NCBI GenBank assembly: GCA_964387145.1
Contig: CAYLVM010000001.1
Location: 52,549-116,548, forward strand
Source of the DNA: an uncultured Acidimicrobiaceae bacterium
Lineage (GTDB): Bacteria; Actinomycetota; Acidimicrobiia; Spongiisociales; UBA5794
Direction: 5' to 3'
DNA length: 64,000 nt
A model generated the notes under the pieces. It was given only the letters and a program-made list of their open reading frames with translations, searched no databases and had not been told where the DNA came from. Numbering within the stretch: the first letter of the stretch is position 1; the number at the start of each line of letters is the position of its first letter. Both the position numbers and the translations under genes were made by a program. Below are positions 1,991 to 49,206 of this stretch, one piece after another.

Positions 1991-2134
1991 TACCTGGTAT
2001 CTGGTACTTAGTACATGGAGGATCGCCCGATGGGCGGATTCGGTTGCTGGGTTCACAGCTCACAGTTCACAGTCGGAAACCCGGACGATTCCTGGATGAC
2101 CAACTGCTACAGGTAAACGGAGAACGACCGCTCC
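1991..2134. repeat. Structured intergenic element E1 (TGGTAYT heptamers plus a conserved ~120-nt core), between the ribH stop and the infC start
   Basis: Shares its core with E2 at 23940-24070: GATCGCCCGATGGGCGGATTCGG / TTCACAG repeats / CGGAAACCCGG / GGTAAACGGAGAACGACCGCTCC. Compensatory substitutions occur in the stems. A diverged inverted copy lies at 5624-5846. Confidence 0.7.
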
Positions 2135-2149
2135 CCGTGCGCGCATCCT

Positions 2150-2620
2150 CTAGGTATCGCGAATAGCCTGGAGCGTTCGTGTCGCGACAACGACGGCTTC
2201 CGCCGCTTCCCGGCCCTTGTTGTCCGGCCCCGGCTGGGAGCGGACCAGGGCATCGTGTGCGTTTCTCACGGTGAGGATCCCGAACGCCATCGGGACACCG
2301 GTATCGAGTTGGGCCCGCATGATGCCCTCCGATGCTCTGTGTGCAATGTGCTCGTAGTGGTCGGTGTCGCCTTCAATCACGGCACCGAGACACACGACGG
2401 CGTCGTAGCCGCGTTGGGCGACAGCGAGAGCGGCCAGCGGCAGTTCGAAGGCGCCGGGCACGTCGACGCTGAGGATCTCTGTTGCATTCGCGGCTTCGAG
2501 GAAGGCGAGCGCGCCCTCCTTGAGCCCGGTCGTGACCACCGCGTTGAACGATGCCGTGACGACGGCGACCCGCAGACCCTCGGCGCTGACGCCTGTGTCG
2601 GCTTGTTCATCGATCCGCAT
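2150..2620 (-). CDS. ribH: 6,7-dimethyl-8-ribityllumazine synthase
   Basis: LRVAVVTASFNAVVTTGL...YDAVVCLGAVIEGDTDHYEHIA is the lumazine synthase fold. The real start is the internal ATG at 2620; the track ORF 2150..2944 is over-extended. Confidence 0.9.
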   Translation of the reverse strand: MRIDEQADTGVSAEGLRVAVVTASFNAVVTTGLKEGALAFLEAANATEILSVDVPGAFELPLAALAVAQRGYDAVVCLGAVIEGDTDHYEHIAHRASEGIMRAQLDTGVPMAFGILTVRNAHDALVRSQPGPDNKGREAAEAVVVATRTLQAIRDT

Positions 2621-3827: not shown

Positions 3828-4432
3828 CGTGACGCTCCGATCATGCGTTCGACGTACTTGGCGATGACGTCGACTTCCAGGTTGACGGCGGTACCGGGCT
3901 GTGCTTCACCGAGCACGGTCACGGCAAGCGTGTGCGGGATCAGGACGATCTCGAACCATTGTGTGGGTTCTCCTGGGTCGCTGACCGCCGTGACGGTGAG
4001 GCTCGTACCGTCCACGGTGATCGAGCCCTTCTCGACCACGTAGCGCCCGAGTGCCTGGGGGAACTCGATGTGCATGCGCGATGCGTCTCCTTCCGCTTCG
4101 ATCGAACGGACGTACCCGACGCCATCGACGTGGCCTTGCACGATGTGGCCGTCGAATCGGCCTTCAGCGGGCATCGGTCGCTCGAGGTTCACCGAGTCAC
4201 ATGCCGTGAGCGATCCGATCGTGGTGCGTTCGAGTGTCTCTTGGACGGCGTCGACCGTGAACGATCCTTCTCCGCGTTTCGTCACGGTGAGACAGACCCC
4301 GTTGACCGAGACCGAATCCCCGATACCGAGTCCCGTGAGGCTGGACGATGCGTCGATCGTCACCTTCCGGCCCTTGGGGATGTCCGCGATCAGGGTGACC
4401 GTTCCGAGTTCGGAGACGATTCCGGTGAACAT
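3824..4432 (-). CDS. ribE: Riboflavin synthase alpha subunit
   Basis: [12 protein letters not shown]...VNGVCLTVT / two lumazine-binding repeats. Confidence 0.92.
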
Positions 4433-5478
4433 CAGTTCCTACCTCCTAGATGAGCGATGATCCTGACGTCAGAGCCGATGCTGCGAACGTCGGTGATCTC
4501 GAGTGGTATCGCCTCGGCGATCGTTGCGAACACCCCTCCGACTGCTGGAAGGCCGGTCCCGGCTGCGAGTTTCGCTCCGATGTAGACGACGAGTTCATCG
4601 ACCTCACCCGAGTCGAGAAAGGATCGAGCGATCCTGGCTCCACCTTCGACGAGCACCGAGCGGATCCCTTCATCACCCAGGCGATCGAGTACTCCCTCGA
4701 TAGCAGCTCCCGATGCCTCGGTTCCTTGGATCACGAGCGGGTTCCGTTCCGAGAGACGTGCCATCGCGGGAAGCTCGGAAGATCCCTTGAGTATCACCGG
4801 CCTCGGCTGCGGGCCGTCGTACCCATCGAGGCGAACGGTGAGTTGGGGGTCGTCGTTGCGCAGCGTCCCAGCGCCGACGAGAACCGCGTCGTGGGCCGCA
4901 CGGAGCCGATGGGCATCTCGACGTGCCGGGAGTTGGGTGATCCACTGCGACGTGGTGTCTGCTGCAGCGATCTGGCCGTCGAGGGTCATCGCGAGTTTCA
5001 GTGTCACGAAGGGTGTGCCGGCGCGCCGGTTCGCGAAGTACACGGGGTCGTTCGCCTCGATGACAGGTGACAGGTCGCTCTCGATGACGTCGATACCTGC
5101 ATCTCGGAGGCGTGTGATCCCAGCACCGCGAACCTGTGCGTCGGGATCGCGAGTTCCCACGATGACCCGTGAGATCCCTGCGTCGATGATGGCATCGGTG
5201 CATGGCGGTGTTCGACCGTGGTGGTCGCATGGCTCGAGGGTCACGATCATCGTGTGGCCCGAAACGTCGTCGAGGCCTTCGAGCGCGAGCCGCTCGGCGT
5301 GGGGTGTTCCGGGTCCCTCGTGGGCCGCGACCGAGAGAACCGCACCCTGGGGGTTGACGATGACGGCACCGACCCGTGGATTGGGATGCGGAAGCGTCGT
5401 TGCAGTTGCCTGCAACGCACGACGCATCAACTGATCCACGTCCGTGCCGTCGAGTTGGTTGTCGACAGCGCGACGCAT
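4432..5478 (-). CDS. ribD: Bifunctional diaminohydroxyphosphoribosylaminopyrimidine deaminase / 5-amino-6-(5-phosphoribosylamino)uracil reductase
   Basis: The deaminase part reads HAERLALEG...TLEPCDHHGRTPPC and the reductase domain follows. The true start ATG at 5478 (MRRAVDNQ) sits directly after the FMN riboswitch; the track ORF is extended to 5682. Confidence 0.9.
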   Translation of the reverse strand: MRRAVDNQLDGTDVDQLMRRALQATATTLPHPNPRVGAVIVNPQGAVLSVAAHEGPGTPHAERLALEGLDDVSGHTMIVTLEPCDHHGRTPPCTDAIIDAGISRVIVGTRDPDAQVRGAGITRLRDAGIDVIESDLSPVIEANDPVYFANRRAGTPFVTLKLAMTLDGQIAAADTTSQWITQLPARRDAHRLRAAHDAVLVGAGTLRNDDPQLTVRLDGYDGPQPRPVILKGSSELPAMARLSERNPLVIQGTEASGAAIEGVLDRLGDEGIRSVLVEGGARIARSFLDSGEVDELVVYIGAKLAAGTGLPAVGGVFATIAEAIPLEITDVRSIGSDVRIIAHLGGRN

Positions 5479-5485
5479 CAAGCGT

Positions 5486-5603
5486 CCCCTTTCTTCCATC
5501 CGGACTTTCACCGTCGACTCCGGATTTCCACCGGATCGGCCCCGTAGTGGGGTTCGCGGGCTTTGACCGCCGGTCGGGAGTTGCTCCCTGCCCCGAAAGA
5601 GGT
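5486..5603 (-). promoter_or_regulatory. FMN riboswitch (RFN element) in the ribD leader
   Basis: The minus-strand RNA reads CUUUCGGGGCAGGGAGCAACUCCCGACCGGCGGUCAAAGCCCGCGA...GGUGGAAAUCCGGAGUCGACGGUGAAAGUCCGGAUGGAAGAAAGGGG. This matches the conserved FMN aptamer blocks. The ribD Shine-Dalgarno AAAGGGGA lies in the 3' strand of P1. Confidence 0.9.
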
Positions 5604-5623
5604 ATGTGGCACATACGGTAGTG

Positions 5624-5846
5624 CCTGGTACTTGGTATCCGGAACCCGGAAGAGAGCAACCCGACCGAGCGCGGAGTGCCAAGGCGACGGGCGAAGAGGG
5701 AGCAGTTGTCCTCCGTTCACCACTTACCGAGAGAAGCGGAACGTTCAGGAACAGTCAGGTGTCCCGGCTGCGAGCTGTCGACCCGCCGACCGGGTCCCCT
5801 GAGCCTCCAAGTACCAAATACCAAGTACCAAATACCAAGTACCAGG
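5624..5846. mobile_element. MITE-like element E3 with perfect 15-bp terminal inverted repeats (CCTGGTACTTGGTAT) and an internal TGGTAYT/14-nt tandem array
   Basis: The left TIR at 5624-5638 equals the reverse complement of 5832-5846. The internal GGAGCAGTTGTCCTCCGTTCACCACTTACCG block resembles the reverse complement of the 3' ends of E1 and E2. It sits 5 nt after the GGDEF gene stop and immediately upstream of the FMN riboswitch. Confidence 0.6.
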
Positions 5847-5851
5847 TACCT

Positions 5852-6778
5852 CTACGTCCGCCTATCCACCTGGTAGTTCGTGCCGGGGGTTCGCTTCGCG
5901 ACTTCCTTCATCTCGGATGCCACTGCAGAAGCTTCCCACTCGCTCGAAAGGCTCTTGTGTTCCGCCGTGGCGACACCCATCGAGAGAGAACAGATCGGGA
6001 ACGCGTGCCGCTCTCCCCTTCTGTCTGTCACCTCGATGTAGCCCTGGAGTGCATCGGCTGTGTCATAGTGTTCGAGGATGCCGTCGTCGAACGTCACGAC
6101 GACCTCATCACAGAACGGCTTCATGTTCTCGGCTCGTACGATGGCGACGAAGTCGTCACCACCGACGTGACCGATGAACGCATCCTGCTCCCCCGCAACA
6201 GCAGCCGCATTCAGCAGCACTTTTGCAGTGAACTTGATGACCAGGTCCCCTCGCATGAATCCGTAGTGGTCGTTGAATGCCTTGAAGTTGTCGAGGTCGG
6301 CGTGGACGAGAGCGAACGGATCTCCCTGTGCCACGCGGTCTTCGAGCTCGGCCGCGATGCGAAAGTTCCCGGGCAGGCCGGTCAGTGGGGAGAGATCGCG
6401 CATCTGTTGGGATCGCCGCAACACGGTCTTGACCCTCGCGATCAACTCTTCGAGGTCGAACGGTTTGGTGATGTAGTCGTCTGCGCCGAGGTCGAGGCCC
6501 CGCACACGGTCCTCAGCGAGACTCCTTGCCGTGAGGACGATGACCGGGATATTCGCCGTGGGCGGATCGCTGCGCATGCGCCTCAGGACGGTGAGTCCGT
6601 CGATCTCTGGCATCATCACGTCAAGAAGCATCAGATCCGGGGGGGCCGCTGCTGCCTTCTCGAGGGCCTCTCTGCCGCCGCCTGCGAGTTCGACCTCATA
6701 GCCGTCGAGTTCGAGGTTCAAACGCACGAACTGGAGAATGTCGGGGTCGTCATCCACGATGAGAATCCGCTCAGCCAT
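5852..6778 (-). CDS. Response regulator with receiver domain plus GGDEF (diguanylate cyclase-like) domain, PleD-like
   Basis: The REC domain reads ILIVDDDPDIL...LMLLDVMMPEIDG...TKPF. The GGDEF domain reads DLDNFKAFNDHYGFMRGDLV...HVGGDDFVAIV, so the signature is GGDDF. No histidine kinase is adjacent. Confidence 0.85.
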   Translation of the reverse strand: MAERILIVDDDPDILQFVRLNLELDGYEVELAGGGREALEKAAAAPPDLMLLDVMMPEIDGLTVLRRMRSDPPTANIPVIVLTARSLAEDRVRGLDLGADDYITKPFDLEELIARVKTVLRRSQQMRDLSPLTGLPGNFRIAAELEDRVAQGDPFALVHADLDNFKAFNDHYGFMRGDLVIKFTAKVLLNAAAVAGEQDAFIGHVGGDDFVAIVRAENMKPFCDEVVVTFDDGILEHYDTADALQGYIEVTDRRGERHAFPICSLSMGVATAEHKSLSSEWEASAVASEMKEVAKRTPGTNYQVDRRT

Positions 6779-23279: not shown

Positions 23280-23809
23280 GATGTCGCCTCCTTGCCGATC
23301 CAGACCCCGTTGTCACCGTCGATCTCAGAGAAACGGACGGAGACGTGTTCTTCGAGAGATGTCGGGATGTTCTTGCCGACGTAGTCGGCCCGTATGGGGA
23401 GTTCGCGGTGGCCCCGATCGACGATGACCGCCAGTTGGACTGCCGATGGACGGCCGAGGTCGGCGAGCGCGTCGAGCGCGGCGCGAATGGTACGGCCGGT
23501 GAAAAGGACGTCGTCTGCAAGCACGACCGTCTTGCCGTCGAGATCCTCGGGGATGTCTGTCGGACCGATACGGGTTCTGGGTCGTGTGTCGATGTCGTCG
23601 CGGTACATGCCGATGTCGAGGGAACCGGCGATCACTGCCTTGTCTTCGATCTCGCCAAGAGCCGTCGCGAGGCGTTCGGCAAAGGGCCTGCCTCTCGTCG
23701 GGATACCGAGGAGGACCGTTCCTTCGAGACCGTGGTTGCGTTCGACGATCTCGTGTGCGATCCGCCGTGTCACTCGCGTGAGATCATCCCCATCCATCAC
23801 CTGCCGCAT
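23276..23809 (-). CDS. pyrR: Bifunctional pyrimidine operon regulator / uracil phosphoribosyltransferase PyrR
   Basis: [25 protein letters not shown]...[19 protein letters not shown]. The true start ATG at 23809 lies immediately downstream of the attenuator; the track ORF is extended to 23908. Confidence 0.92.
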
Positions 23810-23833
23810 GAAGGGTCCTTTGCTGTCGTTGGT

Positions 23834-23869
23834 ACAGAAACAGAAAAGCCGCACATCGAGATGTGCGGC
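23834..23869 (-). terminator. Attenuator terminator hairpin (GCCGCACAUC-UCG-GAUGUGCGGC) plus U-tract
   Basis: A 10-bp GC-rich stem and a U-rich tail read on the minus strand. Confidence 0.75.
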
Positions 23870-23914
23870 AGCCGGCGTGTGCTCATGTTCGTTCCTTCTC
23901 GGCCTCACGGGACC
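23834..23914 (-). promoter_or_regulatory. PyrR-dependent transcription attenuator in the pyrR leader
   Basis: The minus-strand RNA reads AACCCGGUCCCGUGAGGCCGAGAAGG, which matches the PyrR box UCCNGNGAGGC. It is followed by the intrinsic terminator GCCGCACAUCUCGAUGUGCGGC plus UUUUCUGUUUCUG, 25 nt before the pyrR AUG. Confidence 0.8.
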
Positions 23915-23939
23915 GGGTTAAAGGGTGCTTGTTGGAGCC

Positions 23940-24070
23940 ACTGTAGTACCGGGATCAGCGAATGGGCAGCGGTCGCTGAGTTGACAGTTCACAGTCGGAA
24001 AGCCTGGCCGTTTCTGGGTGCTTGCGCTTCGCCGGCAAACGGTAAACGGAGAACGGAGAACGACTGCTCC
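23940..24070. repeat. Structured intergenic element E2 (paralog of E1), abutting the nusB stop and upstream of the pyrR attenuator
   Basis: GATCAGCGAATGGGCAGCGGTCGC / TTGACAGTTCACAGTCGGAAAGCCTGG / GGTAAACGGAGAACGGAGAACGACTGCTCC align with E1 at 2018-2134. Confidence 0.7.
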
Positions 24071-24472
24071 TTATCCGCTGGTCTTCTCGGTGTCTGATCG
24101 TCCCGGTTCTTCCTTCGCAACGGCGACCGCTGAAAGGATGCCGTTGACGAACGCGCCACTCTTTGCGGTCGAGAACTCTTTGGCGAGTTCCACGCATTCA
24201 TCGATGACGACGCCGAGCGGCACGTCGGTGAAGAGCAGCTCGAAGGTGCCAAGGCGCAAGATGTTCCGATCGACTGCAGGCATGCGCTCGAGGCGCCATC
24301 TCGTGGAGGCGGCGCCTATCGCTGCGTCGATGACCTCTTTGTTCAGCCAGGCACCTTCTGCAAGTGATGCAGCCCTCGCCGAGACCTTCGTGATGTCAAT
24401 GGCATCCATCGATCTGGCGTCGGCGGCGTAGAGCGCCCCAAGCGCGCCAATCCTCGCTGCGTCGGCCGTCAT
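24071..24472 (-). CDS. nusB: Transcription antitermination factor NusB
   Basis: ...WRLERMPAVDRNILRLGTFELLF... Confidence 0.9.
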   Translation of the reverse strand: MTADAARIGALGALYAADARSMDAIDITKVSARAASLAEGAWLNKEVIDAAIGAASTRWRLERMPAVDRNILRLGTFELLFTDVPLGVVIDECVELAKEFSTAKSGAFVNGILSAVAVAKEEPGRSDTEKTSG

Positions 24473-49076: not shown

Positions 49077-49136
49077 ATGTTCGGATGATAGGAGCGGGGT
49101 GTGACATTGCAAGTATCGATCCCCGTCCCTTGGCGT

Positions 49137-49178
49137 CTGGCGCCGATACAGCTCGCATCCGAGCTGTATCGGCGCCAG
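49137..49178. repeat. 42-nt perfect palindromic hairpin element, copy B (CTGGCGCCGATACAGCTCG-CATC-CGAGCTGTATCGGCGCCAG), in the yebC-ruvC spacer
   Basis: It has 19-bp perfect arms and is a paralog of copy A at 630-671, with compensatory C/T and G/A changes in the arms. Confidence 0.75.
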
Positions 49179-49206
49179 AGTCCAGATGCGCCGCGGGGAT
49201 GGGAGC

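Follow-up and report, generated by a model that had tools for sequence, protein, structure and literature searches.

Probable insertion of a small MITE-like element into an inverted heptanucleotide array between a GGDEF gene and ribD in marine Acidimicrobiia

Background

Bacterial MITEs, such as Correia/CREE of Neisseria, RUP of Streptococcus pneumoniae, and Nezha of cyanobacteria, are non-coding elements of 110-200 bp bounded by terminal inverted repeats (TIRs). They are dispersed between genes in both orientations, show filled and empty sites in close strains, form subfamilies with common ends and different interiors, and include copies that supply the stop codons of neighbouring genes. The repeat family described here resembles them in all these features. 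Unlike these MITEs, it has no autonomous IS partner among ~760 kb of collected loci, and it shows a candidate 3-bp target duplication. Its interiors and its preferred targets are, in addition, heptad microsatellites, and copies consequently differ by multiples of 7 nt.

REP, BIME, and REPIN sequences, which are mobilised by RAYT (IS200/IS605-like) transposases, are likewise palindromic extragenic repeats with strong hairpins; they closely follow genes and form mosaics or tandem groups. The present family differs from them in being longer, with a non-palindromic interior of ~100 nt and conserved non-complementary positions in its ends. MIRUs are 40-100-bp tandem units without TIRs. Similar to this actinobacterial repeat, the sequences described here are intergenic within operons, overlap stop codons, and vary in unit number, but their variable unit is 7 nt long and their dispersed element is palindromic.

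Tandem 7-nt intergenic units are also known from cyanobacteria, as STRR heptamers. Among the long simple repeats of many bacterial genomes, heptanucleotide microsatellites are reported to be the most frequent type, and slippage of the polymerase has been given as their origin (PMC4679880). Intergenic heptanucleotide repeats have been described in Beggiatoaceae, Cyanobacteria, and Bacteroidetes, with shorter repeat-free spacers in relatives, and either slippage or protein binding has been proposed for them (PMC4679880). The arrays of this study are similar to the TAACTGA repeats of these groups and to long simple repeats in general, as tandem 7-nt units placed between genes near start or stop codons. 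Like the TAACTGA repeats, they comprise 2-10 units and are matched by shorter, repeat-free spacers in relatives (PMC4679880). Unlike TAACTGA and STRR repeats, the units are GTAYYTG, GTTCACA, AACGGAG, and TTCCGGR, and the heptads form inverted hairpin blocks that are physically joined to a TIR-bounded element.

This coupling of a TIR-bounded element with heptad microsatellites, both inside the element and at its insertion sites, is unusual, and makes the family a tractable case for studying the mutual promotion of simple repeats and mobile DNA. Searches of the accessible literature for the family sequence strings and for MITEs of Acidimicrobiia gave no relevant match, and the family, which consists of small mobile or palindromic repeats from uncultured marine Acidimicrobiia, has apparently not been described before. 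We analysed one copy, element F, and its surroundings in a stretch of 64,000 nucleotides, hereafter the window. The account that we consider probable is that a heptad hairpin came first, that a MITE-like insertion followed, and that the promoter and riboswitch of ribD were left untouched.

Genomic context

The window harbours a response-regulator/GGDEF gene of 308 aa (5852..6778, minus; Pfam Response_reg and GGDEF), which ends with the stop codon TAG at 5852-5854. Downstream of it lies ribD (4432..5478, minus; 348 aa, dCMP_cyt_deam_1 and RibD_C), the first gene of ribD-ribE-ribBA-ribH. The spacer between both genes contains an FMN riboswitch aptamer (5484..5604, minus), matched by Rfam RF00050 over model positions 1-138 with 108.7 bits against a gathering score of 66.2.

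The dispersed repeat family

Alignment revealed three homologous elements of one architecture in the window, F on the minus strand and two others on the plus strand (1960-2170 and 23900-24100). An nhmmer profile made from F, E1, and E2 recovered exactly three copies in the window. E1 (2018..2150, plus) lies between ribH and infC and is preceded by a heptad array (1990-2017); its terminal base, 2150, completes the ribH stop codon TAG (2150-2152). E1 was present in the window and in contigs L004 and L055, and L001, which has no E1, carries a (GTARTAC)x4 array in its place. E2 (23950..24086, plus) lies between nusB and the pyrR leader, and its final part (24071-24086) supplies the last five NusB codons and the TAA stop. 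The string GGAGCAGTCGTTCTCCGTTCTCCGTTTACCG is found in E2 at 24040-24070 on the minus strand. An empty E2 site was sought with pyrB as anchor, and every contig reaching the site carries E2. In another locus, L009, GGATAG of the TIR provides the stop codon of a response-regulator gene.

Public collections were scanned with the core pattern AACGGAGRACRACYGCTCC. Among genome contigs, the scan gave 31 stretches, four of which were real and belong to the MAG 'Actinomycetes bacterium Dive96_bin3.271'; the others were single chance matches in unrelated phyla. Some 30 further copies were found in metagenome contigs, many of them from Ga0190293 and VAP* assemblies. In viral contigs, the TIR pattern gave 8 single matches, none of which is a family member by nhmmer. 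In this way ~35 family copies were identified in related metagenomic Acidimicrobiia, a host lineage assigned from protein names. The copies are dispersed over non-homologous loci: three in the window, those on four contigs of the one MAG, and the ~30 from metagenomes.

In the general layout, a heptad array is followed by the left TIR GAGGATSMGCGGATAGG, a run of (GTTCACA/G)n, the core GTCRGAAACC..., a run of (AACGGAG/A)n, GACYGCTCC, the right TIR CCTATCCGCKSATCCTC, and a second heptad array. The family termini are TIRs of 17-18 nt; the consensus from 48 ends is GAGGATcaGCGGATAGGgaGcgg (GAGGATcaGCGGATAGG). The AACGGAGAACGACYGCTCCC block is conserved across the family as well. From TIR to TIR the copies measure 112-203 nt, and fall into subfamilies of 112, ~154, and ~181 nt with common ends and different interiors. 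Length differences between copies, seen as gaps in the family alignment (A6), are multiples of 7 nt. Most copies lie inside GTAC-heptad arrays. Tandem or nested chains were found in L069, L087, L051, L090, and L071, and some contigs carry two or three copies. The two ends of a copy are consistently unlike at positions 7-8 (CA vs GC), which argues for sequence-specific recognition of the ends and not for selection of a perfect hairpin.

A different reading of the family is that of a REP/BIME-like structural module maintained by the host, serving as terminator, stabiliser of mRNA 3' ends, or inter-operon insulator, which would spread via recombination between arrays or a RAYT-type enzyme and not via a DDE transposase. 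The placement of the copies fits such a module. In the window, each of the three immediately follows or spans the stop codon of the preceding gene, and a regulated leader begins shortly after it (FMN riboswitch, pyrR attenuator, and infC). The mosaic, tandem architecture in L069, L087, and L051 fits as well, as do the strong predicted hairpins, the lack of a transposase in the ~760 kb of collected loci, a GC-rich hairpin at the equivalent place in L102/L103, and a recombination tract that stops at the E1 site in L001. However, the hairpins have no U-tract and gave no minus-strand terminator call, and no compensatory changes keep any of the stems. The pairing-breaking CA vs GC at positions 7-8 is conserved, as would be expected if the ends were recognised by sequence, and the ends are 17-18-nt TIRs placed ~100 nt apart and not REP doublets. 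We therefore regard a host-maintained module as unlikely, and treat the family as MITE-like in what follows.

Mode of spread

Transposition is the mode by which we infer that the family spread. Of 24 copies, 14 have the same triplet on either side (TTG/TTG, CAA/CAA, and CAT/CAT). Thirteen of these 14 copies lie within same-orientation arrays, where phase-specific insertion automatically gives identical 3-nt flanks, and L078 (CAT/CAT) is the one clear case outside an array. E1, L077, L032, and L054 have no matching flank triplets. In 13-14 copies the arrays to the left and to the right run in one direction, and in two they are inverted. Flanks of this kind would fit a target duplication of 3 bp in which the TTG of GTACTTG arrays is strongly preferred. 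An autonomous element, sought as TIR pairs 0.8-3 kb apart, was not found in the ~760 kb of collected loci, nor was a transposase. Additional TIR matches in L066 lie inside a coding region and were discarded as chance.

Homologous recombination, acting between the arrays of different loci, could also have distributed the copies. The contig L008 may be a product of such an event, or an assembly chimera, and several copies outside arrays have no flank duplication.

GTWC opens every heptad type, namely GTACTTG, GTACCAA, GTTCACA, GTTCCGG, and, on the opposite strand, GTTCTCC, and this common start suggests one shared cause. It is conceivable, although in our view quite improbable, that the GTWC-phased heptads, instead of being passive products of slippage, are the recognition platform of a dedicated DNA-binding protein (a transposase, a recombinase, or an accessory protein) in a microsatellite-targeted transposition system of Acidimicrobiia. 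Such a protein would read the GTTCACA and opposite-strand GTTCTCC runs inside the element as well as the GTAC-heptad arrays of the chromosome. The landing pads would then be hypervariable inter-operon hairpins, and could shift the expression of adjacent genes, ribD for example, in 7-nt steps.

The ends, the subfamilies, and an empty site of the family are now defined, which should help the annotation of MAGs, because the elements break assemblies, supply the stop codons of nusB and ribH, and may produce chimeras like L008. In L008 (1530-1771, compared with L094 1-295), the 3' end of the GGDEF gene and the heptad array are joined to the element and flank of the L094 locus. Both contigs come from the same assembly, and the junction may be a chimera formed via the common repeat or a real recombination between arrays. 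In L001 (10520-10700, compared with 2150-2270 of the window), identity over the final ~110 nt of ribH drops to ~65-70% between two strains that are otherwise near-identical, and the divergent tract stops where the heptad array and E1 are located, which suggests these repeats as end points of recombination tracts.

Element F and its empty sites

The GGDEF-ribD spacer contains two inverted arms, CCTGGTACTTGGTAT on the plus strand at 5624-5638 being the exact reverse complement of 5832-5846 over 15 nt. With up to 3 mismatches, this motif has 7 matches in the window against 0.24 expected. The inverted repeat can be stretched to 25 nt with 84% complementarity (5621-5645 / 5825-5849). The right arm sits within a six-unit (GTAYYTG)6 microsatellite on the minus strand (5808..5849; GTACCTG, GTACTTG, GTATTTG, GTACTTG, GTATTTG, GTACTTG), for which TRF reported a period of 7 and 6.3 copies at 5807-5850. 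The left arm belongs to an inverted GTAC-heptad block of ~2.5 units, ATACCAAGTACCAGGCAC (5621..5638, minus).

Between the arms lies F, a degenerate family copy of 125 nt (5683..5807, minus), delimited by nhmmer (match at 5860..5676, 172 bits), the family alignment, the comparison of ends, and its absence in relatives. Its left end, GAGGCTCAGGGGACCCGG, runs from 5807 downward, and its right end, ...GGGAGCAGTTGTCC... CCCTCTTCGCCCGTCGCC, finishes at 5683. The element possesses the AACGGAGGACAACTGCTCC block and the GACCCGCCGACCGGGTC hairpin (5781-5797), and a string of 31 nt at 5699-5729 aligns with the ends of E1 and E2. With 125 nt and only spurious overlapping ORFs, F is small and non-coding. 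The last TTG of the six-unit array (5808-5810, minus) flanks it on the left, and an equal TTG (5680..5682, minus; caa on the plus strand) flanks it on the right, a candidate 3-bp target-site duplication. The flanking genes are all on the minus strand, and F has the opposite orientation to E1 and E2 with respect to transcription. In size, TIRs, copy number, and insertion polymorphism, the element agrees with a MITE. Its own two ends agree at only 7/20 positions, compared with 12-16/20 in most copies, and for this reason F is probably old and now immobile, a fossil.

Relatives were collected via GGDEF homologues (L098, L099, L100, L102, and L103), and all comparisons are between metagenomic assemblies, in which repeats are error-prone. 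F was found in the window and in L001-L005, and was missing in L098, L099, L102, and L103. In L098, whose GGDEF protein is 98% identical, the spacer measures 223 nt, compared with 373 nt in the window. This contig keeps the heptad array, the inverted block, the -35/-10 region, and the riboswitch, and misses the ~150 nt between the arms. Its spacer reads TAG-(GTACTTG)3-GTACCTG-GTACTTG-GTGTCTCGTGCCCAC-TTCTGAG-TTCCAGA-TACCAGGTACCAAGTAC-TACCGT-...riboswitch, with a 7-nt register through its whole length, and the inverted block ATACCAGGTACCAAGTAC is a perfect 17-nt complement of the array of the same contig. In L099 (GGDEF 93%) the core is missing and the heptads are few and degenerate, and L102/L103 (GGDEF 85%) have neither heptads nor core, with a GC-rich hairpin after the GGDEF stop and TAGACT as -10. 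L005 alone carries a second, independent TIR-bounded insert of 112 nt in the same array, flanked by TTG/TTG. Filled and empty orthologous sites thus exist for F, for the L005 insert, and for E1. The contig L100 (1118-1262; GGDEF 90%) has a PrmA-like methyltransferase gene after the GGDEF gene in place of riboswitch and ribD, which marks the GGDEF-ribD junction as a rearrangement point in this lineage.

The core is missing in the outgroups L098, L099, and L102/L103, which argues for an insertion rather than a deletion. By outgroup comparison, the arrays are older, and the core entered them afterwards, in the window lineage alone. A secondary deletion in L098 could in principle also have left its empty site.

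In the original prediction, the 15-bp arms were the termini of a single 223-bp element (5624-5846). Much of that description was recovered here. The perfect inverted repeat is far beyond chance (none of 100 shuffles reached 7 matches), the internal string resembling the E1/E2 ends aligns with both at 5699-5729, and the GACCCG-CCGAC-CGGGTC hairpin is present at 5781-5797. The gaps of 5 nt to the GGDEF stop (5852-5854) and of ~20 nt to the FMN riboswitch (aptamer from 5604, minus) are correct, and alignment and nhmmer support a MITE-like, non-coding interspersed element that is related to E1 and E2 but inverted and diverged. The comparison of orthologous ribD upstream regions, proposed as a check, yielded both empty sites (L098, L099, L102/L103) and filled sites (L001-L005). 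The boundaries, however, have to be moved inwards, as the family TIR GAGGATSMGCGGATAGG sets the element at 5683-5807, 125 nt, and the empty site of L098 keeps arms of 15-17 nt without the core. Arms that persist without a core are pre-existing heptad arrays and not element termini.

A single 223-bp MITE that ends in the 15-bp arms and carries the ribD promoter is for these reasons very unlikely, even though the perfect 15-nt repeat is real and its arms pair in the predicted fold. Besides the occurrence of both arms in L098 without the core, the arrays around other family copies are mostly direct and not inverted, the arms are imperfect in L001 and L005, the ends conserved across the family fall inside the arms, and the -35/-10 region occurs without the insert. 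The perfect inverted repeats around this copy would then be part of its target and not transposon ends, which corrects a tempting misannotation.

According to the explanation that we prefer, insertion into older arrays, the GGDEF-ribD spacer would first have gained a GTAC-heptad microsatellite in the form of two inverted blocks. When single-stranded, these blocks would fold into a long hairpin, placed immediately behind the GGDEF stop and shortly before the ribD promoter. A non-autonomous, MITE-like palindromic element of ~125 nt would then have inserted at a TTG of the array in the window lineage, as copy F, in the orientation opposite to its relatives E1 and E2. Most likely, the insertion lengthened the loop of the intergenic hairpin and did not rewire the control of ribD.

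Heptanucleotide arrays

Spacer length was compared among eight contigs with an identical GGDEF protein. Their spacers vary in 7-nt steps, by -1, +1, and +5 units; L003 has one GTACCTG unit fewer than the window array, and L005 has about five GTAC heptads more. The array of the window is accordingly a heptanucleotide simple repeat, with head-to-tail 7-nt units, an intergenic position, and a unit number that varies among strains. A second heptad type, (TTCCGGR)x2, was found at 5638..5651 (minus). Heptads of this type form three units in L001 (TTCCAGA x3, one extra) and the pair TTCTGAG TTCCAGA in L098.

Solo GTAC-heptad arrays without the core element were found in L087 (6620-6710) and L066 (5677-5707), and arrays therefore exist independently of the element. 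In L087, two inverted heptad blocks immediately precede the start codon of an ABC-transporter ATPase gene. A link to restriction-modification was also considered and dropped, as the window shows no depletion of GTAC (observed/expected 0.91). CTAG, on the other hand, is strongly scarce in the window, with 13 occurrences observed vs 36 expected (ratio 0.36).

Omega, a ribbon-helix-helix repressor encoded by pSM19035, recognises WATCACW heptads. By analogy, the arrays, with GTAC every 7 bp in direct and inverted orientation over the -35 and the spacer of the ribD promoter, might serve a cooperative heptad-binding protein as operator, with array length tuning ribD or the GGDEF gene and the MITE being incidental. 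The 7-nt register through the whole L098 spacer, the GTWC start of all heptads, the polymorphic unit number in near-identical strains, and the overlap of the inverted block with the candidate promoter would agree with such an operator. Nevertheless, no candidate binding protein was identified, the arrays also lie next to unrelated genes, and relatives at 85% run the same operon without heptads. Heptanucleotide repeats are, furthermore, common in bacteria and attributed to polymerase slippage (PMC4679880). We consider the operator highly improbable, and prefer the account in which the arrays are microsatellites that later served as the target of F.

Candidate promoter and riboswitch of ribD

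The candidate ribD promoter comprises a -35 TTCCGG (5644..5639) within the second heptad type, an 18-nt spacer formed by the inverted GTAC-heptad block, and a -10 TACCGT (5620..5615), all on the minus strand. The -10, which fits TANNNT, lies at 5615..5620, ~7-10 nt upstream of the riboswitch 5' end. It is unchanged in the window, L001-L005, L098, and L099, and TAGACT occupies the same place in L102/L103. A sigma-70 consensus scan of 5400-5950 found no promoter, and we infer the identity of this one from its position and the conservation of TANNNT. The original prediction had located the ribD promoter inside the element or overlapping it. This did not hold, as TTCCGG-18-TACCGT lies 38 nt beyond the end of the insert and is also present in L098 and L099. 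Going by these sequences, the candidate promoter and the riboswitch lie outside the insert and appear to predate F, and the outcome for riboflavin regulation is ordinary, with the promoter and the FMN riboswitch untouched.

The region with the insert has a predicted fold of -109.3 kcal/mol (z = -3.2), in which the arms pair, and the hairpin of the empty site one of -50.1 kcal/mol (z = -5.0). A terminator scan of 5400-5950 gave no minus-strand terminator, and no U-tract follows the hairpins. The heptad hairpin sits exactly where L102/L103 carry the GC-rich hairpin after the GGDEF stop, and might plausibly act as a terminator without U-tract or as an insulator.

A structured ncRNA or cis-regulatory RNA family, for which the conserved 19-nt block AACGGAGAACGACYGCTCC and the fold z = -3.2 might speak, can be dismissed as extremely unlikely, given that the three window copies occur in both orientations relative to transcription, that copies differ by multiples of 7 nt, and that RNAalifold on 18 copies gave 7 predicted pairs with 0 compensatory changes and a covariation term of -0.07. 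Similarly, Rfam searches at the gathering score and at E<=10 matched the FMN riboswitch only, with nothing else in 5560-5900 having an E below 2.

The pyrR gene (minus, 177 aa) starts at 23809, and its leader (23810-23949) contains the hairpin GCCGCACATCTCGATGTGCGGC followed by a T-run (23870..23839), which is probably the PyrR attenuator. E2 lies just upstream of this leader hairpin, mirroring the position of F upstream of the FMN riboswitch.

The window also contains a near-perfect palindrome of 55 nt, TGGCGTCTGGCGCTGATA...TATCAGCGCCAGACACCAG, which is unrelated to the F family. Its two copies (624-678 and 49131-49185) are 84% identical, and the first is located immediately downstream of the rplT stop codon. 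Its appearance is that of a palindrome family of the REP-like or terminator kind.
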